The notes under the pieces: model-generated | What the model was told of the DNA's origin: nothing | Seen by the model: only the letters and a program-made list of their open reading frames with translations | The model's database searches: none | Translations under genes and position numbers: made by a program | Sequence record: DRR723986_8012 | Reading direction: 5' to 3' (one strand) | Length of the DNA: 60,670 nt | Shown: positions 4,904 to 54,683 of the stretch, in pieces | Layout of the letters: each line of letters starts with the position of its first letter | Numbering within the stretch: position 1 is the stretch's first letter

Positions 4904-6184
4904 ATGAAACACGGTCGTCGCGTTGCCATTATTGGCGGTTCACGCATTCCATTTGCACGTTCAAACACAGCCTACATTGGCAAATCCAACCAGGATATGC
5001 TGACAGCAGCATTCCGCGGTGTCGTTGACAAGTTCCAGTTGCATGGTGAAGAACTGGGCGATGTGGTGGCTGGTGCAGTGGTGAAGCACAGCCGCGATTT
5101 TTCCCTGTGCCGTGAATCAGTATTGGGCTCGGGCTTGAGCCCGGCAACGCCTGCATTTGATATTCAGCAGGCTTGTGGCACTGGTCTGGAAGCAGCCATC
5201 GTAGTGGCCAACAAAATTGCTCTGGGACAAATTGAAGTGGGCATGGCCGGTGGAGTAGACACCACCACCGACGCACCAATCGCTGTAAGCGAAGGGTTGC
5301 GCAAAATTTTGCTGGAAGCCAACCGCGCTCGCGACACCAAGGGCAAATTGGCTGCTTTGTTGAAAATTCGCCCCAAGCACCTGGCACCGCTGCCACCTGC
5401 CAATGCAGAGCCACGTACCAAGATGAGCATGGGTGCACACTGTGAAGTGATGGCACAAACCTGGGGTATTACTCGCGAAGAGCAAGATGAACTGGCCGTG
5501 AGCAGCCATTTGAAAGCTGCCAAAGCTTACGAGGAAGGCTTCTTCGATGACCTGGTGGTTCCATTCAACGGTTTGACCCGCGACAACAATCTGCGTGCTG
5601 ACTCTTCAGTCGAAAAGCTTCAGGGCCTGAAGCCTGCGTTTGACCGCAAGAGCGGCAAGGGCACGATGACTGCCGGTAACTCTACACCGCTGACCGACGG
5701 CGCGTCTGCTGTGTTGTTGGCCTCTGAAGACTGGGCCAAGGCACGTGGCATTCAGCCATTGGCTTACCTCACTTTCAGTGAAACAATTGGTGTTGATTTC
5801 GTGTCGGGCAAAGAGGGCCTGCTGATGGCGCCTGCTTACGCTGTGCCGCGCATGCTGAAGAAGGCCAATATGAAGCTGCAAGACTTCGACTTCTATGAAA
5901 TTCACGAAGCGTTCGCTGCGCAGGTGCTGTGTACATTGAAGAGCTGGGAAGACCCCAAGTTCTGTAAGGAAAAACTGGGCTTGGATGCTGCCTTGGGTTC
6001 AATTGACCGTAGCAAGCTGAACGTGAAAGGTGGTTCGCTGGCTGTTGGACACCCATTTGCTGCCACGGGTGGTCGCATTGTGGGCACATTGGCCAAGCTG
6101 TTGAATGAAAAAGGCAGCGGCAAGGGCTTGATCTCCATTTGTGCGGCCGGTGGTATCGGTGTAACTGCAATTCTTGAGAAGTGA
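4904..6184 (+). CDS. Acetyl-CoA C-acyltransferase (thiolase), FadA2/FadI-like
   Basis: QQACGTG, EIHEAFA, GHPFAATG, SICAAGG thiolase motifs. Confidence 0.93.
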   Translation: MKHGRRVAIIGGSRIPFARSNTAYIGKSNQDMLTAAFRGVVDKFQLHGEELGDVVAGAVVKHSRDFSLCRESVLGSGLSPATPAFDIQQACGTGLEAAIVVANKIALGQIEVGMAGGVDTTTDAPIAVSEGLRKILLEANRARDTKGKLAALLKIRPKHLAPLPPANAEPRTKMSMGAHCEVMAQTWGITREEQDELAVSSHLKAAKAYEEGFFDDLVVPFNGLTRDNNLRADSSVEKLQGLKPAFDRKSGKGTMTAGNSTPLTDGASAVLLASEDWAKARGIQPLAYLTFSETIGVDFVSGKEGLLMAPAYAVPRMLKKANMKLQDFDFYEIHEAFAAQVLCTLKSWEDPKFCKEKLGLDAALGSIDRSKLNVKGGSLAVGHPFAATGGRIVGTLAKLLNEKGSGKGLISICAAGGIGVTAILEK

Positions 6185-6188
6185 AATC

Positions 6189-7079
6189 ATGAGCGTGAAT
6201 GACACCCTGAAAGCAGCGGCGAAATTTTTCGAGCTGTCTGAATTTCCAAATGGCAAGGCGCTGCTGCTGAAGGCTGCCACCACGTCCAATAAAAAACCAA
6301 AACCCGACACTCAGGCTGCACGCCTGGGTGCCCGGGTAAAAAAAGTGTTCATCGACCGTGAGTGGGTACGCCAGTACAACGCTGTGTGCGGTTTCAAGGA
6401 AGATGAAATTTCCTTAACTGCGCCACAGGTGGTGGCCTCGCCCCTGCACATGTATTTGCTGAGTCGCCCTGAGCACCCCATGCCCATGTTGGGCATGGTT
6501 CATTTGCACAACTCGATTGAGTGCGCCAAGCCTTTGGAGTATGGCGTGCCCTACGATGTGGTGGTGACTGTGGGCGACACCCGCAGCATTTCGCTCGGTC
6601 TGGAATTTGATGTGCACACGCAGTTTTTGGTGGGTGAGGAAGTGCACTGGAGCAGTGTGATGACCATTTTGTGCCGCGTAAAGGGCATGCCCAAGCCCTT
6701 GACCAAGCCTGCGCCAGTTGAGCCTTTGAGTGCAGTGGGTGCGCAATACGCCGCCGTGAAAGTGCCTGAAAACCAGGGCCGCAAGTACGCCAAGGTGTCC
6801 AATGACTACAACCCGATTCACCTGTATGCGCAAACCGCGAAAATGTTTGGTTTCAAGCAGGCCATCGTGCACGGTATGTGGACCGCAGCAAAAACATTGA
6901 GCATTGTTGAAGCCAGTTTGGGTTCTCGAGCCAGCAAGTTTGATTTGTCGTTCAAGCAGCCGGTGTTTTTGCCTTCTGGTATTTCGGTGAAGCATGTGAC
7001 AGCCGATGGCGCTTCGAAGTTTGAAGTGCTGGCCGAGCGTGATTCGAAAGTGTTGATGGTGGGAAGTATTGCGGCTTGA
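6189..7079 (+). CDS. MaoC-like double hot-dog (R)-hydratase/dehydratase, HtdX-like
   Basis: YAKVSNDYNPIHL and AIVHGMW hydratase-2 motif; GMVHLHNSI. Start set at MSVNDT. Confidence 0.88.
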   Translation: MSVNDTLKAAAKFFELSEFPNGKALLLKAATTSNKKPKPDTQAARLGARVKKVFIDREWVRQYNAVCGFKEDEISLTAPQVVASPLHMYLLSRPEHPMPMLGMVHLHNSIECAKPLEYGVPYDVVVTVGDTRSISLGLEFDVHTQFLVGEEVHWSSVMTILCRVKGMPKPLTKPAPVEPLSAVGAQYAAVKVPENQGRKYAKVSNDYNPIHLYAQTAKMFGFKQAIVHGMWTAAKTLSIVEASLGSRASKFDLSFKQPVFLPSGISVKHVTADGASKFEVLAERDSKVLMVGSIAA

Positions 7080-7132
7080 TTTTTTGATTGAATGAGTGGC
7101 TTGGTTAGGTTTGCAGCGCGTCACTCATTGCG

Positions 7133-7418
7133 CCGGGGTTGTTTGCCAAGTCGCACGTCACCATCTGTTTGTGAGTATTTGCAAAGTTCGCTTTGCCCTA
7201 TCTCCGCCTTCAAGAAAGCCTGCCCGTTTGTTGAATTCGCCGTCTGTTCGGCTGAAAGCCGAAAGCGAGTCCCGCCCGCTGTGTTAGCGGGCTCGCTTAG
7301 GACTGTTGAGTTCAACAAAAAGGGGGGTGTCAGGCTTTCTGGCGGAGGAGGGCATGCGACTTTGCAAATGCCAGATAAAGAAACCAGGGTATGTGACTTT
7401 GCAAATGCCAACACACCG
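7133..7418 (+). other. Long rod-like imperfect inverted-repeat element with branched apex (candidate structured RNA or palindromic repeat element)
   Basis: Nested stems 7141-55/7392-7406, 7175-91/7356-71, 7194-7208/7341-54, 7213-22/7331-40, 7227-38/7308-19; apex hairpins 7247-63 and 7264-97. Confidence 0.8.
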
Positions 7419-7421
7419 CTG

Positions 7422-8084
7422 CTATCTCTCCGACAGTCCGGGCATCAAACTGGTTTCAATCATTTTCTGCATGTCTCGAATCGGAATTTCCGGATGTTGA
7501 ATCCACCACCGGGCACCCGCTTCAACAGCCCCCACCATGATGTTGGCCAAAGCCACTGCCTGAATGCCAGCCTTATCGCCATTCTTGGCTTTTGAAGGGT
7601 CGTTGAGTTCTTCGATGGTTTTGGCCGAGGCTTCGATAAAGCTGTTTCTGAAAAAAGCCACCTTCTCGCCAACCGGTCCCACGCTGGTCAGCGCTTCGTT
7701 GTACAACACAGACCAACCATCCCGGTGACGTTCTACAAACGTCAGAAAGCTGAGTATGATCAGTTTCAGGCGCTCTTTGGGGTTTGGGTTGGCCATTAGC
7801 AAGGAGAGGCCTGACATCAGGTGATTGCCCACTTGGGTAATGGTGGCCAGGTACAGCGCATCTTTGGAACCAAAGTAGCGGTAAAGCAGGGGTTTGGTGA
7901 CGCCGGCACCTTCTGCGATTTGCTCCATACTCGTGGAGTGAAAGCCGTGACGCGAGAACACGGAACCTGCCACATCCAGAATTTGGCTCATTCGTTGTTC
8001 TTTGGGTACTTTTCGTGTGCCCAGGCGTTTTGTCTCGAGAGTAGGCGCCGCGTTTTTATTGTTGTCGTTCGCTTTTTTCACCAA
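7422..8084 (-). CDS. TetR/AcrR family transcriptional regulator
   Basis: HTH ILDVAGSVFSRHGFHSTSMEQIAEGAGVTKPLLYRYFGSK. Confidence 0.93.
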   Translation of the reverse strand: MVKKANDNNKNAAPTLETKRLGTRKVPKEQRMSQILDVAGSVFSRHGFHSTSMEQIAEGAGVTKPLLYRYFGSKDALYLATITQVGNHLMSGLSLLMANPNPKERLKLIILSFLTFVERHRDGWSVLYNEALTSVGPVGEKVAFFRNSFIEASAKTIEELNDPSKAKNGDKAGIQAVALANIMVGAVEAGARWWIQHPEIPIRDMQKMIETSLMPGLSER

Positions 8085-9421: not shown

Positions 9422-11335
9422 GTGGTTGAGCAAGCGAAGTATCAGTCCAACGGGACATATCAGAATTTGTATGATGAATCCATTCGCAATCCCAAGGGTT
9501 TTTGGGCCCGACAGGCGGATTTGATTCACTGGCAAAAACCGTTTGAGAAGGTGCTGGATGACAGCAGACCACCCTTCGCGGCCTGGTATGTAGGTGGGGA
9601 AACCAACTTGTGTTACAACGCCGTGGATCGGCATCTTGACCAGTTGGGCGACAAGCCCGCACTCATCTACGTGTCTACTGAAGTAGATCAGGAAAAAGTG
9701 TATACCTTCCGCCAATTGCACCAGGAGGTGCAAATTGCGGCTGCCATGCTGCAAAAGATGGGTGTGAAAAAGGGCGACAGGGTGTTGATCTACATGCCCA
9801 TGATTCCTGAAGCGACTTTTGCGATTTTGGCCTGTGCCCGAATCGGTGCAATTCATTCCGTGGTATTTGGTGGGTTTGCTTCTCACAGCCTTGCGTCGCG
9901 AATTGAAGATGCGAAGCCGAAGGTGATTGTGTCGGCCGATGCAGGTTCACGCGCTGGCAAAGCCGTGGCTTACAAACCATTGTTGGACGAGGCGATCGAG
10001 CGCTCAAGCTACAAGCCAGGCCATGTATTGATGGTCAACCGGGGTTTGGTGCCATTCAGCAGTGTGGCTGGGCGCGATCAAGATTACGCCGCCTTGCGCA
10101 AAGAACTGGCCACTGCCAAAGTGCCAGTGACCTGGCTTCAGGCGACTGACACGAGTTACATTCTCTACACCAGTGGTACCACAGGTAAACCCAAGGGTGT
10201 GCAGCGCGATGTGGGCGGTTATGCCGTGGCCCTTGCTGCTTCAATGAAGTACATTTTCATGGGGGAAAAAGGAAAAACATTCTTTGCCACCAGTGACATT
10301 GGATGGGTGGTGGGGCACAGCTACATTATTTACGGCCCCTTGATTGCCGGCATGGCCACCGTGATGTACGAGGGCGTTCCCATTCGACCCGATGCAGGTA
10401 TTTGGTGGAAGATCGTTCAGGATCACAAGGTATCGGTGTTGTTCTCTGCACCAACCGCGGTGCGGGTATTGAAGAAGCAGGATCCCGCTTACTTGAGCAA
10501 ATACGACTTGAGTTCACTGAAGGCGCTGTTTTTGGCTGGCGAACCTTTGGATGAAACGACCTCCGACTGGATTTCGGGTGCGATTGGAAAACCAATTGTA
10601 GATAACTATTGGCAAACGGAAACTGGCTGGCCAATTCTTGCAGTGCAACGCGGCATTGAAGAAATGCCTGGCAAGCTGGGTAGCCCCGGTGTGCCCGTGT
10701 TTGGATTCAACGTGAATGTGTTGAACGAAGAAACTGCTCAGCCCTGTAAAGCGAATGAAAAAGGTGTGGTGGCGATTGAAGGGCCACTGCCGCCCGGTTG
10801 TATGCAAACCGTGTGGGGCGATGATGAACGGTTTGTGAAAACCTACTGGTCGAGTTTTAAAACCCGACAGGTTTATTCCACCTTCGATTGGGGTATTCGC
10901 GATGAAGACGGGTATTTCTTTATTCTTGGTCGCACGGACGATGTGATCAACGTGGCGGGTCACCGTTTGGGCACTCGCGAAATCGAGGAAAGTATTTCCT
11001 CCCACCCCGCGGTCGCTGAAGTGGCCGTGGTGGGCGTGGCCGATCAGGTGAAAGGGCAGGTGGCAGTGGCTTTTGCCATTTTGAAGTCGGCCGATGCGGT
11101 GGATGGGGCCCAGGCCAAAACTCTGGAAGCAGAGATCATGAAGGTAGTGGATTCCCAGCTGGGTGCAGTGGCCAGACCCGCCCGAGTGTATTTTGTGAAT
11201 GTGCTGCCCAAGACACGTTCCGGCAAATTGCTGCGACGGTCAATTCAGGCGGTTTGTGAAGGCCGCGATCCTGGCGACATGACTACGATTGAAGACCCCA
11301 CTGCGCTGGCGCAAATCAAAACTGCCATGGCATGA
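9422..11335 (+). CDS. prpE: Propionate--CoA ligase
   Basis: [59 protein letters not shown] before GTG. Confidence 0.9.
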   Translation: MVEQAKYQSNGTYQNLYDESIRNPKGFWARQADLIHWQKPFEKVLDDSRPPFAAWYVGGETNLCYNAVDRHLDQLGDKPALIYVSTEVDQEKVYTFRQLHQEVQIAAAMLQKMGVKKGDRVLIYMPMIPEATFAILACARIGAIHSVVFGGFASHSLASRIEDAKPKVIVSADAGSRAGKAVAYKPLLDEAIERSSYKPGHVLMVNRGLVPFSSVAGRDQDYAALRKELATAKVPVTWLQATDTSYILYTSGTTGKPKGVQRDVGGYAVALAASMKYIFMGEKGKTFFATSDIGWVVGHSYIIYGPLIAGMATVMYEGVPIRPDAGIWWKIVQDHKVSVLFSAPTAVRVLKKQDPAYLSKYDLSSLKALFLAGEPLDETTSDWISGAIGKPIVDNYWQTETGWPILAVQRGIEEMPGKLGSPGVPVFGFNVNVLNEETAQPCKANEKGVVAIEGPLPPGCMQTVWGDDERFVKTYWSSFKTRQVYSTFDWGIRDEDGYFFILGRTDDVINVAGHRLGTREIEESISSHPAVAEVAVVGVADQVKGQVAVAFAILKSADAVDGAQAKTLEAEIMKVVDSQLGAVARPARVYFVNVLPKTRSGKLLRRSIQAVCEGRDPGDMTTIEDPTALAQIKTAMA

Positions 11336-14338: not shown

Positions 14339-14541
14339 TTTGTGACAAGTGTGCAGTGCAGCAATGGTTAATGGGGTAATGGCGGAAACTATAGCAGAAC
14401 CAAGCTACACCGGTGCTGCTTCTGGTCAGCTGGAACGCGAATTGCTGTGGTGCGCCATGGTGTAAGGTGAGAGTAAGAGCTTTTGCCTATTGTTTATGCA
14501 AACTAAATTAATAGAAAACTAAGTAACCCTTGGAGGACAGG

Positions 14542-16524
14542 ATGTCATCGATCGAATCAGTGTCACATGAAACACGCGTGTTTCAGCCCAGTGCCGACTG
14601 GCAACGCAGTGCCGCAATTGGCGGTATGGACGCTTACAAAGCCTTGTGCAAAGAAGCTGAGACAGATTTTGAAGGTTTTTGGGCCCGCCTGGCCAAAGAA
14701 AACCTGCAGTTCGCAAAAGCCTACAACCAGGTATTGGATGAATCCAACCCACCGTTCTACAAATGGTTCACTGGCGGCGAATTGAATGTTTCGGCCAATT
14801 GCCTGGACAAGAACGTGAATGCCGGCTTGGGTGACAAGGTTGCCCTGATTTTTGAAGCCGATGGCGGCGAAGTGACCAAGGTGACTTACAAGGAATTGCT
14901 GGCCAAGGTAAGCCGCATTGCCAACGGCCTGAAAAGCCTGGGCGTGAAGAAAGGCGATCGTGTGGTGATTTACATGCCCATGAGCGTGGAGGGTGTTGCG
15001 GCCATGCAAGCGTGCGCGCGTATCGGTGCAACCCACTCCGTGGTGTTTGGTGGTTTCTCTGCCAAGGCCTTGCAGGACCGTATCGTTGACACAGGTGCAG
15101 TCGCGGTATTTACCGCCGACCAGCAAGTGCGCGGTGGTAAGCAGTTGCCCCTGAAAGCGATTGTGGATGAAGCGCTGAGCATGGGTGGCTGCGACGCTGT
15201 GAAGAATGTCATTGTGTACAAGCGCACCGGTGCAGACGTAGGCATGCAGGCCGGCCGCGATGTGTATTTGCATGAACTCGCTGACAAGCAAAGCGATGTC
15301 TGCGCGCCTGAAATGGTGGATTCCGAGCACCCGCTGTTTATTCTCTACACTTCGGGCTCAACGGGTAAACCCAAGGGTGTGCAGCACAGTTCTGCTGGTT
15401 ATTTGCTGTGGGCCATGCTCACCATGAAGTGGACTTTCGACATCAAGCCTAACGATGTGTTTTGGTGTACGGCCGACATTGGCTGGATTACCGGTCACAC
15501 TTACATTACCTATGGCCCCTTGGCAGTAGGTGCTACTCAAATCGTGTTTGAGGGTGTGCCCACCTACCCGAATGCCGGTCGTTTCTGGGAAATGATTCAG
15601 CGCCACAGCGCTACCATTTTTTACACCGCACCCACAGCGATCCGTTCATTGATCAAAGCCTCCGAGGCTGATGAGAAAGTGCACCCAAAGAGCTACGACC
15701 TTTCCAGCCTTCGCTTGATGGGCTCAGTCGGCGAGCCGATCAACCCTGAAGCCTGGATGTGGTATTACAAGAATGTGGGTGGTGAAAAATGCCCAATCGT
15801 CGATACCTTCTGGCAAACCGAAACCGGTGGCCACATGATCACGCCATTGCCTGGTGCCACACCCTTGGTGCCTGGTTCATGCACATTGCCATTGCCCGGC
15901 ATTATGGCGGCGGTGGTGGACGAGGTGGGTGGCGATTTGCCCAACGGCCAAGGTGGTATTTTGGTGGTGAAGCGCCCATGGCCTTCAATGATCCGTACCA
16001 TCTGGGGTGACCCGGATCGTTTCAAGAAGAGTTATTTCCCTGAGGAACTGGGTGGCAAGTTGTACCTGGCCGGTGACGGCGCCGTACGCGACAAGGACAG
16101 TGGCAATTTCACCATCATGGGTCGAATTGACGATGTGTTGAACGTGTCGGGACACCGCATGGGCACCATGGAAATTGAAAGCTCACTGGTGGCCAACGAA
16201 TTGGTGGCCGAAGCCGCGGTGGTGGGGCGTCCTGACGATTTGACCGGCGAGGCGATTGTGGCCTTTGTGGTGTTGAAAGGCGATCGCCCCACCGGTGAAG
16301 CCGGGCAGAAACTTGCCATGGACTTGCGCAACTGGGTGGGCAAAGACATCGGCCCGATCGCCAAGCCCAAAGAAATTCGTTTTGGCGACAACCTGCCCAA
16401 AACACGGTCAGGCAAAATCATGCGCCGTTTGTTGCGCAGCCTGGCCAAAGGTGAGCAGATCACGCAAGACACCTCCACCCTGGAGAACCCGGCCATTCTG
16501 GACCAATTGGGCAAGCCGCTCTAA
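14542..16524 (+). CDS. acs: Acetate--CoA ligase
   Basis: [52 protein letters not shown] before ATG 14542. Confidence 0.95.
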
Positions 16525-18751: not shown

Positions 18752-18842
18752 GGAGAGATGGATGAGTGGTTTAAGTCGCACGCCTGGAAAGCGTGTATAG
18801 GTTAATAGCCTATCGGGGGTTCGAATCCCCCTCTCTCCGCCA
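18752..18842 (+). tRNA. tRNA-Ser (anticodon GGA)
   Basis: Acceptor stem GGAGAGA/TCTCTCC + GCCA; anticodon arm CACGC-CT-GGA-AA-GCGTG; long variable arm; GGTTCGAATCC T-arm. Confidence 0.98.
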
Positions 18843-38246: not shown

Positions 38247-38400
38247 TTTTCATTGAAAAAATTGACTGTCAAATAGGGACAAGTACGCATAGCCAACTAA
38301 TACAGGTGTAGAACCCCCTAATTTTAGGGGGGGTGTGTGGGGGATCTCTACCCTTTATTCTTCATACATGGAATCGTTGAAATTTCTTGCGGAGCTTGTC

Positions 38401-39825
38401 ATGAAATCAAAATTAATAGTTGCCGCAGCCTTGGGCTTTGTCCCTGGGTTAGGCTGGTCCATTGACCGTATTCAGGGCGCAGACAGTGGTTTGAGTTGTG
38501 ATTCGATCGCAACTCAACAAGCCGAAATGAATGGGTATATGGAGGCGGGTAATACAGAACGAGGGTTGGGTACCGCAGCGGTGGGTGGCGCAGCCAATGT
38601 GGGTGGGCAGGTGGCTACCTCGCAAGTGGCGAGTGGTTTGTTCGGTGCCTTTGGTGGTATTGCAGCGAAAGTGGCAGGTACCCTGGCCCAAGACCAGGCT
38701 GAGGCCGCAGTTGGACCCGATCCCGCAGCCGTTGAAAAAGCCAAATTGGCCGCAAACCGGAACGACTTTTTGACCCAATTGGCTTTGGCCAAAAATTGCG
38801 CCACACCGGGCGGAGAGAAAATGCTCACCCTCGCAGAGTTTCAGCAGGTTGCCACAGCAGCGCCATTGGGTACGGTGAAAGCCCAGGCAATGACCTCTGA
38901 GTTGGTGTTGTCCACATTGAAGGAACCTGTGTCTGTGTTGCCAACCAGTGGAGTGACTGACGGCAAATTGAGTATCAAAGGCAAGAAGGTGTTTCTCACA
39001 GAGTATCGGGTGCTGTTCGACGTCAGTGGTGAAGTCAACGCCAATACGCGGGGTGGGTACTTGTTGGGCAGTGATTACGGTTCAACCCGTGTCACTGTGA
39101 AGTACAGAATTCCGAATGTGGACGTGGCTGCTTTTCAAGTCATCACCGACAAAGCCTTCGAAGACTTTAAGTCCCGAATGACCACCACAGGGCTCGACTT
39201 GAACTATGGCAATCCACCTGAGGGTGGCGTGTATGACGCCACGCAGCCTGGCAGTACACCCGAGGTGCCGGTTTATATAACCAAAGACGTGGGTCATTCC
39301 AAACGTGTGTTTTTAGTCATGGCCCCCACGGGGATGAAGTTGATATCCAGAGGTTTCACGGGAATTGGGGCCGGCAATATTGGTAATCGCATCTCCTGGG
39401 GTGGAAAAAACTACGAGGGAATGAATGTGACCCAGACCATCAACATTGCAGACCATGAGTCCTCAGGTTCGGGTTCATCCATTTTCAGGAAACGTTCTGA
39501 GGCTGATGCCAAATCGGGTATGAGTGTGGCAGCAGGTACAGGTGAATTTCTGGTTCAAACCCATGTCAGCGGTAATTTGCTGCGAGCCGACAACCCTGTG
39601 CTGATTGCCGGTCAGTTTGCCAATTTCAAGGATGTGGGAGGTTTTGACAGCGATAAAAACACTGCTTTGCGCGTGGTCGGCACACTTCAAAATCTGGCGG
39701 GTATGGGGGCGGACAAATTCAAAACTGTTGAAAAAGAGGTTGAACTCGACGGTGCCGCTACTGCTCGCATGGCACTGCAGGGTTTGGCTACCATGAACCA
39801 GGCGGTGGCTGAATCAATCCGCTAA
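38401..39825 (+). CDS. Hypothetical secreted protein
   Basis: Signal peptide MKSKLIVAAALG..; 474-aa open frame; Gly/Ala-rich segment; RBS GGAG. Confidence 0.8.
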   Translation: MKSKLIVAAALGFVPGLGWSIDRIQGADSGLSCDSIATQQAEMNGYMEAGNTERGLGTAAVGGAANVGGQVATSQVASGLFGAFGGIAAKVAGTLAQDQAEAAVGPDPAAVEKAKLAANRNDFLTQLALAKNCATPGGEKMLTLAEFQQVATAAPLGTVKAQAMTSELVLSTLKEPVSVLPTSGVTDGKLSIKGKKVFLTEYRVLFDVSGEVNANTRGGYLLGSDYGSTRVTVKYRIPNVDVAAFQVITDKAFEDFKSRMTTTGLDLNYGNPPEGGVYDATQPGSTPEVPVYITKDVGHSKRVFLVMAPTGMKLISRGFTGIGAGNIGNRISWGGKNYEGMNVTQTINIADHESSGSGSSIFRKRSEADAKSGMSVAAGTGEFLVQTHVSGNLLRADNPVLIAGQFANFKDVGGFDSDKNTALRVVGTLQNLAGMGADKFKTVEKEVELDGAATARMALQGLATMNQAVAESIR

Positions 39826-43579: not shown

Positions 43580-43712
43580 TTTATAACTCCATCATTCTTG
43601 TGTGTGGGAAAGACCATCATAGGGTTAAACAAGCTTTACTGCTCATTTATTCCGAGTCAACCAAACGAAGGCCGTTGCGTTTTAGTTGACATCACAGCAA
43701 GGAGGATTTGTG

Positions 43713-44285
43713 ATGAAAACTCGATTGTTCAGGATTTTTTCGGCCAGCTTTGCTGTTTTGACTGGTCTTCTGATGGCACCCCTACAGGCTCAGGCCGTTA
43801 ACATCTCCATCGGCGTTGGCGGGGAGGTGCTTCCCGGCGTATATGGCTCTGTCAATATCGACAACGGGCGCTACCCAACGCTGGTCTATGCAGAACCGCT
43901 GATCGTGACTCGCCCCTCGCGAATTCTTTCGCCAATTTACCTGCACGTGCCACCGGGGCATCTGAAAAAATGGGGTCGCTATTGCGGTCGTTATGATGCA
44001 TGTTCACGGCCGGTGTATTTCGTGAAGTCTCGCGATTACTACGACTTCAGCCCACGTTACATTGAGCAGCGCTATATTTATCGTGACCGTGTGACCTATG
44101 TAAACCGTGGAGGTTATGACCGCCGCGACTACTATGATCGCAGGGACTACGATCGCCGCGACTATGATCGCCGTGATTACCGTGAGTATCGCCGTGACCA
44201 CGATCACCGTGGACATGGAAAACACTGGAAACACGATGATCGGGGCCATGGACATGGCAAACATGGTCGAGGTCGAGACGACTAA
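43713..44285 (+). CDS. Hypothetical secreted protein with RRDYD repeats and a His/Gly/Arg-rich tail
   Basis: Signal peptide ending AQA; PIYLHVPPGH.K.W..YCGRYDACSRPVYFV; RBS AAGGAGG. Confidence 0.8.
   Translation: MKTRLFRIFSASFAVLTGLLMAPLQAQAVNISIGVGGEVLPGVYGSVNIDNGRYPTLVYAEPLIVTRPSRILSPIYLHVPPGHLKKWGRYCGRYDACSRPVYFVKSRDYYDFSPRYIEQRYIYRDRVTYVNRGGYDRRDYYDRRDYDRRDYDRRDYREYRRDHDHRGHGKHWKHDDRGHGHGKHGRGRDD
44115..44186 (+). repeat. Degenerate 15-bp coding tandem repeat (YDRRD) x4
   Basis: TAYGAYCGCMGSGAY-like units with synonymous variation. Confidence 0.8.
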
Positions 44286-44619: not shown

Positions 44620-45057
44620 ATGAAAATTCGGTCCAAATTACGTCAGCAGGGTGCGCTCATGATCGAGTTGGTGCTGACACTGCCCATATTGCTGGCTGTG
44701 ATTTTCGCGATCGTTGAATACTCTGTGTTGTTGGGTGCGATGTTGATCATGAACAACACCACCAGCGAGGCGGCCCGCCAAGCCACGGTCTACCGCAGCG
44801 GTTTTGCTGTCAGCGATTATGAAGTCCTTGCACAAGACGCGCTGGAAGACATGTTGCCCAGCTATGTAGGTTCTTTCCGGGACAGCGTTGTGCCTTCCGT
44901 GAATTCTTTTGCTTGCGGCGATTCAACCTGCCTGCGGGTGCGTCTCGATTACCCCAATTACAGCAGCAACCCGCTGGTCGGGAATTCCTTCTTCATTCCT
45001 TTGCCCGAGAATTTGTCAGCAGAGTCCACAACACGTGTGGAGCCCAATGATGGTTAA
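44620..45057 (+). CDS. TadE-like minor pilin
   Basis: RQQG|ALMIE prepilin site, hydrophobic helix, SEAARQA. Confidence 0.82.
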   Translation: MKIRSKLRQQGALMIELVLTLPILLAVIFAIVEYSVLLGAMLIMNNTTSEAARQATVYRSGFAVSDYEVLAQDALEDMLPSYVGSFRDSVVPSVNSFACGDSTCLRVRLDYPNYSSNPLVGNSFFIPLPENLSAESTTRVEPNDG

Positions 45058-46678
45058 TCGACGTTCTCGGCGCTCGCAACGCGGTGCTTATTCCCTATTG
45101 ACCGTGTTCGTACTCATCATGAGTGTTGGCGCACTTGGCGTGTTGGCTGTGGGCCACATGGCCTGGGAGAAAACCCGCTTGCAAGGGGTTGCCGATCTGG
45201 TTGCCCTGACCGCTGCCCGCCAAATGGCCAACGGACCTGAATTCGCCGAGGCGCAGGCCATCGCACAGGCCAATGGTCTGAGCGAAGACGATGATTTGAC
45301 CATCGAGTGCATCATCGATAATGCACCTACCAATGATTGCGACAACTCCATTACCAGCCGGGTCACGATTGTTCGTCCGGTCAATGGTTTGCTGGCTTTC
45401 TTGCCAAACCGTGATGTGTCGGTGCTGGCCGAAGCAACCGTGGCACCCACAGTGGTGGGGTCGGTGTCCAGCGGCCTGGTCAGTGTGGACACCAACCAGT
45501 CTGCCTTGTTGAATGGCCTGTTGACCGCTTTGGGTGGTGGTGCGATCAATTTGACGGTGGCCCAGTGGGGCGGTTTGCTCGGCAGTGACATCCGTGTGGA
45601 TTTATTGGCCTTGGCTACAGAATTGGGTGTGGCCAATGTCAATGACTTGTTGTCGTTGAACGTGTCGGCATTGGGCTTGCTGCAAGACGCCTTGTTGGTA
45701 GGCAATGCCGATGCAGCCGACAAAATGGAAGTTGAAGGTATTCTGAGTGCCTTGAGTGGACCATTGAATAACGTCAATGTGACCGTTGGGGATTTGTTGG
45801 CGCTCGATTTGTCTGGCCGAACCAATACCACCCTGGATGTCAATCTGGGTCAGCTTGCGCAGGTCACTGTGTTGAATGCGGTGGAAGGAGTGGGTTATGT
45901 ATTGCCTATTTCATCGGGTTTGCTGAATCTGGATGTCGGCGTGAATATTCTGGAAGCGCCACAGGTGTTTGTGGGCCGAAAAATGCCCTACAAAGACCCC
46001 ATCGCCACGGGTCGAACAGCGCAGGTCGCACTGGATGTGCGAGTGCGCCAGCCTTTGAATCTTAATCTGGCACTTGTTAATTTAAGTGCGCTCGATCTTG
46101 GGCTTCAACTGCGGGTAGCAGGTGGATTGGCCGAGGTAAATGAGTTGACCTGTCGTTACCCCCGTTCAACCAACAACATGGTAATGACCGTGGTACCTGC
46201 TGTAGCAGAAGTGTGCATTTCGGACAGCGCGGGCAATTTGAACACCACTGTGGGGTCACTCGAGTGCGGATCACCTGCCGATATCCTGAATGTGAATTTT
46301 CTGGGCTTGGTGAATGCCGGCGTTACTTTGGCAGCCGAGACCAGTTTGCGCTCCGACCCTGTTCAACACAGCTTCGATGGCATGGCGCCTTTCAGCGAAA
46401 CCATTGAACTGAGTGTGGGGGAAACGCTGGGCAATTTGCTGCAAAACACGGAATTGGACCTTGGTATTGAACTGCCACTGGTTGGCCCGCTGATTAACGG
46501 CGTTGTGAACGGTTTGGTGAACCTGTTGCTCAATGCACTTGAACCCGTGTTAAGTCCCATTCTGGGACTGGTAGGCAATATCCTTGATGGTTTGTTACAG
46601 GTGTTGGGCGTGGATTTGAACACGGTGACAGTCAATGTGGATTCCATGGACTGTCAAAGTGTGGTTTTGACGCGTTGA
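45047..46678 (+). CDS. TadG-like pilus assembly protein
   Basis: SQRG|AYSLL, RLQGVADLVALTAAR, RTAQV, Leu-rich C-terminus ending in Cys. Start 45047 or 45050. Confidence 0.8.
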   Translation: MMVNRRSRRSQRGAYSLLTVFVLIMSVGALGVLAVGHMAWEKTRLQGVADLVALTAARQMANGPEFAEAQAIAQANGLSEDDDLTIECIIDNAPTNDCDNSITSRVTIVRPVNGLLAFLPNRDVSVLAEATVAPTVVGSVSSGLVSVDTNQSALLNGLLTALGGGAINLTVAQWGGLLGSDIRVDLLALATELGVANVNDLLSLNVSALGLLQDALLVGNADAADKMEVEGILSALSGPLNNVNVTVGDLLALDLSGRTNTTLDVNLGQLAQVTVLNAVEGVGYVLPISSGLLNLDVGVNILEAPQVFVGRKMPYKDPIATGRTAQVALDVRVRQPLNLNLALVNLSALDLGLQLRVAGGLAEVNELTCRYPRSTNNMVMTVVPAVAEVCISDSAGNLNTTVGSLECGSPADILNVNFLGLVNAGVTLAAETSLRSDPVQHSFDGMAPFSETIELSVGETLGNLLQNTELDLGIELPLVGPLINGVVNGLVNLLLNALEPVLSPILGLVGNILDGLLQVLGVDLNTVTVNVDSMDCQSVVLTR

Positions 46679-54022: not shown

Positions 54023-54601
54023 TTACCCCTTGCAAGCCTCCAAGGCGGCAGTTTTGCTGCCTGCTTTTTGAATGCAGGTTTTCAGGCTGTCCAGATTGGG
54101 CAGGGTTTTGCAGTGGGGCACATCGACCAGCGGCTGTGTGCTGTTAAAGCCGCAAGCGTAATACGACGTCACCGGATTCACCGGTTTGTTGATCACCTTG
54201 TTGCACACCGGTTTCAGGTTGTTGTTGACCCAGTTGTCGTAAGTAGCTAACTCTTTCTCAAACTCAGCTTTGTCTGCATTCAACTGGTCAGCCTGAAGGT
54301 TAAAGGTGTTCACCGCTTCATTGAAATTCGCAACTGCCTTTTGATCGGGCTTGCCCGCATCCAGTTTGGCTTTCTGGTTTTGCAAGGCAACGCGCCGCTC
54401 GCTTAAGAGTTTCTCGCTGCCACGCAGGTCGCTGGCCCGTTGCTCCAGGGTGTTGAACCGCTTCAGGCCCTGCTGTTCGAGTTGTAAACAGGCCCGCAAG
54501 TCGCTTTCATTTGCCTGTTCCGGGGCTGGAGTTTGAGCTTGCAAGGCGGGGCAGGCCAAGAGCATCAGTAATGTGCCGATTTTGGCTTTGGACATAGGCA
54601 T
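54023..54601 (-). CDS. Hypothetical secreted coiled-coil protein with Cys-containing C-terminus
   Basis: Signal peptide ending LQA; heptad-like E/K/Q-rich middle. Start uncertain. Confidence 0.7.
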   Translation of the reverse strand: MPMSKAKIGTLLMLLACPALQAQTPAPEQANESDLRACLQLEQQGLKRFNTLEQRASDLRGSEKLLSERRVALQNQKAKLDAGKPDQKAVANFNEAVNTFNLQADQLNADKAEFEKELATYDNWVNNNLKPVCNKVINKPVNPVTSYYACGFNSTQPLVDVPHCKTLPNLDSLKTCIQKAGSKTAALEACKG

Positions 54602-54683
54602 GTTGACCATCCATGTGAACCGCAAGGCCCTGATCGTAGCAGATCAATCAACAAATTAAATCGCTGTATCAATTGATTAAATA

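Follow-up and report, generated by a model that had tools for sequence, protein, structure and literature searches.

A candidate family of strand-polar, hairpin-forming palindromic repeats between convergent genes of Limnobacter

INTRODUCTION

What is the long, folded stretch of DNA that occupies most of the gap between a MaoC-like (R)-hydratase gene (maoC) and a convergent TetR-family regulator gene (tetR) in sequence record DRR723986_8012? We refer to the whole analyzed stretch of 60,670 nt as the window and to positions 7133 to 7418 as the element. An earlier note on this DNA described the element as an unannotated rod of ~290 nt with a three-way-junction apex and proposed three candidates: a new noncoding or 3′-untranslated-region RNA, an RNase III substrate, or a non-autonomous palindromic mobile element moved by an enzyme encoded elsewhere. 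We folded the element on both strands and compared it with 32 loci encoding relatives of the hydratase (called a dehydratase in the earlier note), 19 of which come from Limnobacter or close relatives (L001 to L019); the loci searched for copies total 483,277 nt.

Our best reading is that the element belongs to a Limnobacter-specific family of noncoding, hairpin-forming palindromic repeats located between convergent genes and resembling REP, REPIN, BIME, and ERIC sequences. We put at roughly 0.55 the probability that it is a palindromic, strand-polar repeat of intergenic DNA which is or once was mobile in a non-autonomous manner, is now constrained, and probably acts as an RNA 3′ hairpin. Among the three original candidates, the non-autonomous palindromic element fits best: the repeat occupies two convergent-gene spacers, is absent in distant species, and occurs in inverted, nested, and truncated pieces.

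RESULTS

The minimum free energy (MFE) RNA structure of positions 7120 to 7430 reproduced the nested rod and its two-hairpin apex, at −144.4 kcal/mol on the + strand (z −8.18; 0 of 100 dinucleotide shuffles as good) and −133.2 kcal/mol on the − strand (z −7.10). With DNA parameters, positions 7133 to 7418 gave −78.3 (+) and −76.2 (−) kcal/mol, with a z score of −9.2 for both strands and none of 200 shuffles as good for either. The comparison with shuffles that the earlier note had called for thus places both strands far beyond chance (z −7 to −9). All of the stems it described were located by coordinates and by reading the sequence: an outer stem (7141–7155/7392–7406), two arm stems (7175–7191/7356–7371 and 7194–7208/7341–7354), two further stems (7213–7222/7331–7340 and 7227–7238/7308–7319), and the GTCT/GGAC stem (7242–7245/7300–7303).

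The element is not the single, unique ~290-nt system first described, since its inner ~209 nt (7167–7375) are the unit of a repeat family found elsewhere. This family has at least two diverged subtypes, X and Y, which lie in opposite orientation where both are present. The family unit is ~200 to 210 nt and consists of two inverted end units (~25 to 35 nt, core TTTGCAAAGTCGC) around a three-way-junction center with two hairpins. The window copy is a Y unit surrounded by a further, outer layer, in which the end units are duplicated (L1/R1), and lies beside the orphan arm of a deleted X. The parts are as follows.

7133–7418 (+): whole rod, made up of an outer layer, an inner element, and a three-way apex (RNA and DNA folds with shuffle controls)
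7080–7134 (no strand assigned): "T" module, an orphan X-type outer arm (7113–7134) plus a small local hairpin (7091–7098/7122–7129)
7141–7167 (+): L1, outer left end unit; pairs with unit R1 in the MFE structure; lies 36 nt upstream of L2, which it repeats directly in diverged form
7167–7375 (+): core unit of the family, Y type, top strand +; left arm, three-way apex, and right arm, matched by a covariance model built only from X copies
7175–7208 (+): L2, left inverted-repeat arm of the core; pairs with 7341–7371 and holds a local GCAAAG-TTCG-CTTTGC hairpin (sequence reading)
7209–7340 (+): central part, which closes the three-way junction in the MFE structure through the last three stems named above
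7247–7263 (+): apex hairpin 1, with a conserved stem and a variable loop
7264–7297 (+): apex hairpin 2, with 7 bp, a one-base 5′ bulge, and 4 to 5 bp
7341–7373 (+): R2, right inverted-repeat arm of the core (fold and repeat family D18)
7387–7410 (+): unit R1, right end unit of the outer layer; repeats R2 in direct orientation 37 nt downstream

R2 and unit R1 are 92% identical over 25 nt (repeat family D18: 7349–7373 and 7386–7410), and a repeat finder run on the whole window returned, from the element, only this internal repeat and one arm pair. Tandem R2-R1 units are also present in L002, L007, and L009, and a unit homologous to L1 precedes one of the relatives' copies (L009, site B as defined below). 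The rod does pair as first described, but it does not fill the entire gap: positions 7080 to 7134 (55 of 342 nt) form the separate T module, which is 92.7 to 98.2% identical over its 55 nt to the same site in L009, L004, and L002. In X copies, GGCGCAATGATGCAACGCTGC at the opposite side of X is the pairing partner of the T sequence (helices 1 and 2); T is an orphan arm here because the window has lost the center and partner arm of X.

Copies of the repeats were found at two sites: site A, the maoC-tetR spacer, and site B, a convergent-gene spacer ~9 kb upstream of maoC. When the window spacer was compared with the loci by BLASTN, two further full-length Y copies (L009:912–1105 and L005:273–463) appeared, both at site B; with their diverged outer layers, they extend over L009:868–1140 and L005:228–495. 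These two copies and that of the window are 76 to 81% identical to one another. A second repeat of ~200 nt, X, lies immediately 5′ of Y at both sites; we collected eight X copies from sites A and B of six species. X is also a branched rod; in its outermost stem, the T sequence (window 7113–7134) pairs with its far-side partner. X copies at site A of L010 and site B of L005 cluster apart from the other (X1) copies with a support of 0.993 and define a subtype, X2.

Plain local alignment of X with Y gave mostly noise (z −0.4 to 3.7), with two exceptions in reverse-complement orientation (z 5.2 and 7.1). Their relationship became evident only from a covariance model (model R1) built from the − strand of the eight X copies only (208 positions, 65 pairs) and run on the window with filters off. 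It matched window positions 7167 to 7375 (+) end to end with 46.1 bits (E 1.3e-9); among the 81 window matches listed, the runner-up scored 9.8 bits, and none lay on the − strand of the element. The model also matched L005:259–468 (+, 31.7 bits) and L009:902–1108 (+, 31.4 bits), so that it found all three Y copies, each opposite to the X orientation. X copies themselves score 31 to 38 bits in reverse orientation because X is palindromic; the matches to Y are one-sided, and the relation between X and Y is thus polar. That a model of X alone recognizes the window core argues that X is an inverted relative of Y, and hence that the X-Y block joins two diverged members of one family head to head.

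Neither model R1 nor an nhmmer profile of the three Y copies revealed any copy in the window besides the one under study; model R1 found no further site in the 483,277 nt of loci, nor did the Y profile in the 32 loci. BLASTN in distant mode with positions 7100 to 7440 gave no match in plasmid and phage collections. A narrow literature search, together with Rfam scans, yielded no published description of the X/Y family.

The earlier note expected homologs to keep their pairing by covariation, and they do so through double changes in Y, in X, and in the two together. For the three Y copies, RNAalifold gave 88 consensus pairs, 18 of which show a pair-preserving double change. For the eight X copies, standard pairs fill 96.1% of 514 cells, and double changes occur in 16 of 65 pairs; none of 500 column shuffles reached as high a value, and sliding the partners by 1 to 3 columns left 32 to 41% paired. 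A joint MAFFT alignment of X and Y placed double changes in 23 of 37 consensus pairs. Examples come from both parts of the apex hairpin 2 stem, where AGCGAG/CTCGCT becomes ACCGAG/CTCGGT or AGCGCA/TGCGCT, and CCCGC/GCGGG becomes TTCGGC/GCCGAA; the layout of this hairpin, including its one-base 5′ bulge, recurs in the consensus structures of all three Y and all eight X copies. The central part as a whole is likewise kept with double changes in L009 and L005. These counts come from copies related by descent. In addition, quasi-palindromes can copy changes from arm to arm by template switching, which mimics compensation.

Both subtypes fold better on one strand, and that strand differs between them. 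The three Y copies fold better on + (by 14.7, 9.7, and 17.3 kcal/mol), and the eight X copies fold better on − (by 3.0 to 20.1 kcal/mol); strand polarity thus tracks the orientation of the unit, not the genomic strand. Wobble pairs point the same way. All six G-U positions reported for the window copy are G opposite T on + when checked base by base (7141/7406, 7153/7394, 7176/7370, 7201/7348, 7236/7310, and 7245/7300), but the 6-to-1 asymmetry claimed from this copy alone is not significant, and the MFE structures of 7133–7418 contain eight G-U pairs on + and six on − (six and three for the inner 201 nt). To treat the strands alike, we limited wobble counts to pairs predicted on both strands. 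By this count, Y has 7 cells with G-U on + and 1 on −, and X has 11 cells (8 column pairs) with G-U on − and 3 on +. Pooled by column pair over X and Y, the count is 15 to 4 in favor of the top strand (two-sided binomial P about 0.02), so that the asymmetry recurs in relatives and is suggestive when pooled. In a pooled set of pairs predicted on either strand the asymmetry is gone (24 versus 17; 29 versus 31), because the fold of each strand adds its own G-U pairs. That units only tens of bases apart have opposite wobble bias speaks against a mutation bias tied to replication or transcription and favors selection on the respective strand of each unit.

An alternative to RNA is a single-stranded DNA (ssDNA) site whose top strand folds during replication or transfer for a strand-specific recombinase or HUH enzyme, in the style of attC, IS200/IS605 ends, or REP-RAYT, with no role as RNA. 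The tracking of polarity with unit orientation, the one-base bulge of apex hairpin 2 in 11 of 11 copies, and the location of copies in little-transcribed space between terminators (see below) agree with this alternative, as does the prediction, given in PMC3116915, of REPIN folding in ssDNA or mRNA. We nevertheless consider an exclusively ssDNA site unlikely: no gene for such an enzyme was found among the 50 window open reading frames (ORFs) scanned, the strands fold about equally with DNA parameters, and the element has no integron, phage, or plasmid neighbors and, as noted above, no plasmid or phage match. The strand asymmetry is large with RNA energies (11 to 15 kcal/mol) and small with DNA energies, which leans toward RNA without deciding the matter.

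The repeats change several-fold more slowly than synonymous sites, as judged from four-fold degenerate positions of maoC and tetR pooled. X orthologs at site A (L002, L003, L005, and L006) are 86.5 to 92.0% identical and those at site B 82.9 to 85.7%, versus 57 to 73% and 52 to 73% at four-fold sites for the site A and site B species pairs, respectively; the Y orthologs of L009 and L005 are 76% identical, versus 56%. Concerted evolution fails to explain this conservation, because the copies within one genome are less alike than site A orthologs: on the eight-copy alignment, the site A and site B copies of X are 75% identical in L006 and 68% in L005, and the six orthologous site A pairs are 82 to 88% identical.

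Could the element be a neutral, decaying DNA palindrome or a functionless chance fold? Template switching between arms could mimic compensatory change without selection, and deletion variants are common (see below). We regard this as very improbable, however, in view of the fold z scores of −7 to −9, conservation well above that of four-fold sites, the architecture shared by X and Y despite weak sequence similarity, and the opposite wobble bias of adjacent units.

The maoC-tetR spacer could be delimited in 14 genomes, which fall into two groups.

L015 to L018 (distant; maoC identity 74–76%): spacer of 53–73 nt, little more than a bidirectional terminator hairpin and its T runs
Ten closer genomes (maoC identity 92–100%): spacers of 68, 112, 123, 123, 165, 247, 277, 300, 342, and 392 nt

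Each of the ten closer genomes has its own mosaic of repeat pieces, except L001 and L004, which share the same 123-nt spacer. L010 has kept a terminator after maoC in addition to its X2-type copy, and the window, unlike the distant species with their plain bidirectional terminator, has no terminator-like hairpin left at site A. Other spacers hold shortened forms: the L002 copy is a short Y of ~70 nt, whose arms close on a 5-nt loop without the central part; site A of L009 retains T plus about 13 nt; and at site B the unit has collapsed to one end in L007 and to a right-end remnant in L006. These short variants look like hairpin-mediated deletions. The stop codon of tetR lies 3 nt from the end of the rod, and TetR ends in SLMPGLSER in 7 of 10 species, with one of these nine residues different in each of L006, L009, and L007; the insertions thus end at the stop codon.

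At site B, the block is flanked, as read by eye, by terminator hairpins of the + strand gene and of the convergent gene, and the site is only about 35 to 140 nt in distant species. L016, a distant Limnobacter metagenome-assembled genome, carries there a ~560-nt insert that is unrelated to X and Y and ends in approximately three tandem units of 33 to 35 nt (GGGGCAATAAACAGGCACGGG...; L016:800–925); a short echo of its motif occurs in L018. Separately, window positions 7077 to 7090 (GCGGCTTGA TTTTTT GATTGA), where maoC ends and the spacer begins, resemble L009:640–668 (CAGCGGC TTTTTT ATTGA), in which the 3′ half and T tail of the site B terminator are followed by the start of the block; this likeness may reflect microhomology used in copying of the block between sites, or chance.

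These histories bear on a second RNA-based explanation: that X and Y are a dedicated structured RNA, either a cis-acting 3′-untranslated-region element or a small RNA, which is not mobile, came to occupy two loci by an old segmental duplication, and has a top-strand fold that is bound or processed by a host factor. Much of what is described above would follow from this: the identity of site A X orthologs relative to four-fold sites, the 96.1% paired cells and 16 covarying pairs of X, one architecture in two subtypes diverged in sequence, a top strand favored by wobble pairs and, by a large amount, with RNA but not DNA energies, and only two sites in the window and loci. Yet a promoter scan found no promoter within the element or near either unit (one promoter-like site, at 7732–7760, lies inside tetR), and the site B block is enclosed by two terminator hairpins. 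In an intact block, the transcript of each gene would first meet the weaker-folding bottom strand of its nearest unit. The element has been lost wholly or partly from site A in L009, L001, and L004 and from site B in L006 and L007, and the X2 subtype occupies different sites in different species. Finally, a palindromic, inverted, and nested layout with end-unit duplications is typical of repeats, not of RNA genes. We therefore view a dedicated, immobile RNA as possible but on balance doubtful.

The absence of a known RNA family, suggested by the earlier note, agrees with our Rfam scans. Rfam 15 at gathering thresholds detected in the whole window only a tRNA (18752–18839); with E values up to 10, the best match in 6900–7700 scored 16.5 bits against a 99-bit threshold and lay outside the element, and nothing at L009 site B exceeded threshold. 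We also considered an integron attC site, Tn7- or Mu-like multi-site ends, a hammerhead-type ribozyme, 6S or Y RNA, a retron noncoding RNA, and a group II intron fragment; these were rejected for lack of matching neighbors, lack of an Rfam match, or ends out of register. The element was originally judged not to be an intrinsic terminator, and we concur: it has no short G+C-rich hairpin followed by a T run, and a terminator scan of 6800–7800 reported no terminator-like site, a weak negative since the same scan missed hairpins in L009. The latter, two hairpin-plus-T-run terminators at L009:627–656 and approximately L009:1143–1190, are visible by eye and absent from the scan output.

We give next to no credence to a protein-coding role. 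ORFs of 63 to 167 amino acids (aa) cross the element on both strands, and a Shine-Dalgarno-like GGAGG is followed 5 nt on by an ATG within the R2 arm (7344–7356). The 97-aa ORF (7121–7414, −), however, has no Pfam family, and a search of a protein database at lengths of 53 to 170 aa gave one word-sharing candidate and no scoring match. Y copies differ by gaps of 1, 2, and 3 nt, and the L009 and L005 ORFs lie on other strands and in other frames. Of the five R2 units seen, four have the ATG (window, L002, L006, and L005 site B), and L009 has ATA in its place; the ORF starting from the ATG leaves the element and is not conserved. GGAGG-ATG is probably a by-product of the arm sequence.

Judging from identity to L011 (Limnobacter sp. 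CACIAM 66H1), the window is Limnobacter DNA: the hydratase proteins are 100% identical, and the maoC-tetR spacers share 345 of 345 bases. The flanking genes, described earlier as convergent, are indeed on opposite strands, and maoC closes an SDR-thiolase-MaoC row.

6174–7079 (+): MaoC-like (R)-hydratase gene, left flank of the spacer (Pfam PF01575, E 3.1e-17)
7422–8084 (−): TetR-family regulator gene, right flank of the spacer (Pfam PF00440 and PF21943)

Several other features of the window were noted. Two acetyl-CoA-synthetase-like paralogs (9422–11335 and 14530–16524), with 5.2 kb between them, share nucleotide stretches of 75 to 78% identity (repeat families D3 and D6). The tRNA mentioned above (88 nt; Rfam, 56 bits) is directly followed by a 28-nt inverted repeat (18837–18864/18868–18895) that resembles a bidirectional terminator. 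Three overlapping 15-nt periodic repeats at 44124–44180 encode an R-D-Y-rich stretch within an ORF (43686–44285, +, 199 aa) without a Pfam family. At E 1e-5, no Pfam family was assigned to three more ORFs, 38335–39825, 44909–46678, and 54023–54625 (496, 589, and 200 aa).

DISCUSSION

We propose that what is selected in this family is the single-stranded fold of one strand per unit. The repeats would have entered the terminator-proximal spacers of convergent genes in an ancestor of marine Limnobacter, most likely spreading as a non-autonomous element by means of an enzyme encoded elsewhere, as REPINs do by RAYT. Later, constraint may have retained them in some lineages, with hairpin-mediated deletions trimming them in others. 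Today the element would probably act as RNA, as a long 3′ hairpin that ends the maoC operon transcript and lies right after the tetR stop codon. Like REP, ERIC, and Correia repeats, such a hairpin would block exonucleases, be processed, or insulate convergent transcription units.

Several observations weigh against this proposal. As to mobility, only two genomic sites were found in the window and loci, both with the same X-then-Y order, and a single segmental duplication could thus explain much of the apparent dispersal. Copies within a genome, being less alike than site A orthologs, give no sign of recent activity. Reading of the flanks revealed no target-site duplication, as no direct repeat borders the window, L009, or L005 copies. 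Comparison with related genomes, proposed in the earlier note as a source of copy number and of empty sites, added the two full copies but no clean empty orthologous site, because every short allele looks like a deletion remnant. The window shows no enrichment of a 12-nt end motif when up to 2 mismatches are allowed (15 occurrences versus 9.2 expected; 9 of 100 shuffles reach 15), and the 50 window ORFs scanned contain no transposase, Y1/HUH, or reverse transcriptase domain. A host-functional RNA would be conserved well above the synonymous rate, as these repeats are; purely selfish DNA is not expected to be. As to the role as RNA, the position of the site B block between two terminators, where little transcription is expected, weakens it; the strands differ by only 2.1 kcal/mol with DNA parameters; and, owing to shared descent, the 11 of 11 strand result amounts to about three independent lineages.

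Among known repeats, REPINs are similar in several respects. As described in PMC3116915, they consist of inverted end units around a spacer, form a long hairpin as ssDNA or mRNA, are extragenic with common compensatory changes, leave single-unit remnants, and occur in higher-order clusters; inverted ends, a hairpin, an extragenic position, double changes, single-unit remnants, and clusters are all seen in the X/Y family. Paired inverted end units are present here as L2/R2 and L1/R1, and likewise in L009 and L005. According to 10.1101/2021.07.10.451892, a REPIN is ~100 bp long, a genome typically carries hundreds of them, and they rely on a RAYT present in single copy. In contrast, the present family has a longer unit (209 nt for the core, 286 nt for the entire rod) and a three-way apex that is conserved; two sites were found in the window and loci; and no RAYT is encoded among the 50 ORFs scanned in the 60-kb window. 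Compared with a ~14-bp REP palindrome, the left end unit reads GCAAAG-TTCG-CTTTGC and the right has only GGCAT...ATGCC around a 12-nt loop. Given its length, we do not file the element as a REPIN.

BIMEs are mosaics of two diverged types of palindromic unit, in opposite orientation, which lie at 3′ ends or between convergent genes and vary in unit number and order among relatives; the X(−)/Y(+) pairs and species-specific mosaics are reminiscent of these. BIME units, however, are REPs of 20 to 40 nt that form numerous clusters in a genome and are bound by gyrase and IHF, whereas each unit here is itself a branched rod of ~200 nt. ERIC (IRU) and Correia (CREE, NEMIS) elements, imperfect palindromes of 100 to 170 nt in transcribed intergenic space whose RNA hairpins affect neighboring mRNAs, resemble X and Y by architecture alone. 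ERIC shows strong conservation, and some of its variants are lengthened by internal insertions; Correia elements make a TA target duplication. Both differ from our family in their high copy numbers, and no target duplication is seen here. According to PMC2649163, IHF and RNase III can bind Correia elements, and RNase III can cleave or protect them. The element also occupies the position of the maoC-tetR bidirectional terminator hairpin of distant Limnobacter, from which it differs in its lack of a short G+C-rich hairpin and T run. Its terminal inverted repeats of ~33 nt (7175–7208 and 7341–7373) recall miniature inverted-repeat transposable elements (MITEs); no parent insertion sequence with the same ends was found in the window or loci.

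A more novel conclusion, which we consider rather unlikely and put forward tentatively, is that X and Y are an undescribed class of ~200-nt strand-polar structured elements, defined by the rod, the three-way junction, the invariant one-base-bulge hairpin, purifying selection, and an arrangement as inverted pairs in spacers of convergent genes. Such a class would function as RNA, perhaps by insulating convergent transcripts in both directions or directing their processing, or would be the substrate of a single-strand-specific enzyme, and not an ordinary REP or MITE.

If our best reading, a family of REP-like palindromic repeats, is true, it explains the variability of the maoC-tetR spacer among Limnobacter genomes and makes X and Y a lineage-specific addition to the long list of bacterial palindromic intergenic repeats, which would be useful for annotation and strain typing but not surprising. 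Less ordinary are the conservation above synonymous sites, the branched architecture in two subtypes, and the opposite polarity of adjacent units. With these properties, the family offers a compact case for asking whether selection acts on REP-like repeats as RNA, as single-stranded DNA, or solely in their capacity as replicators.

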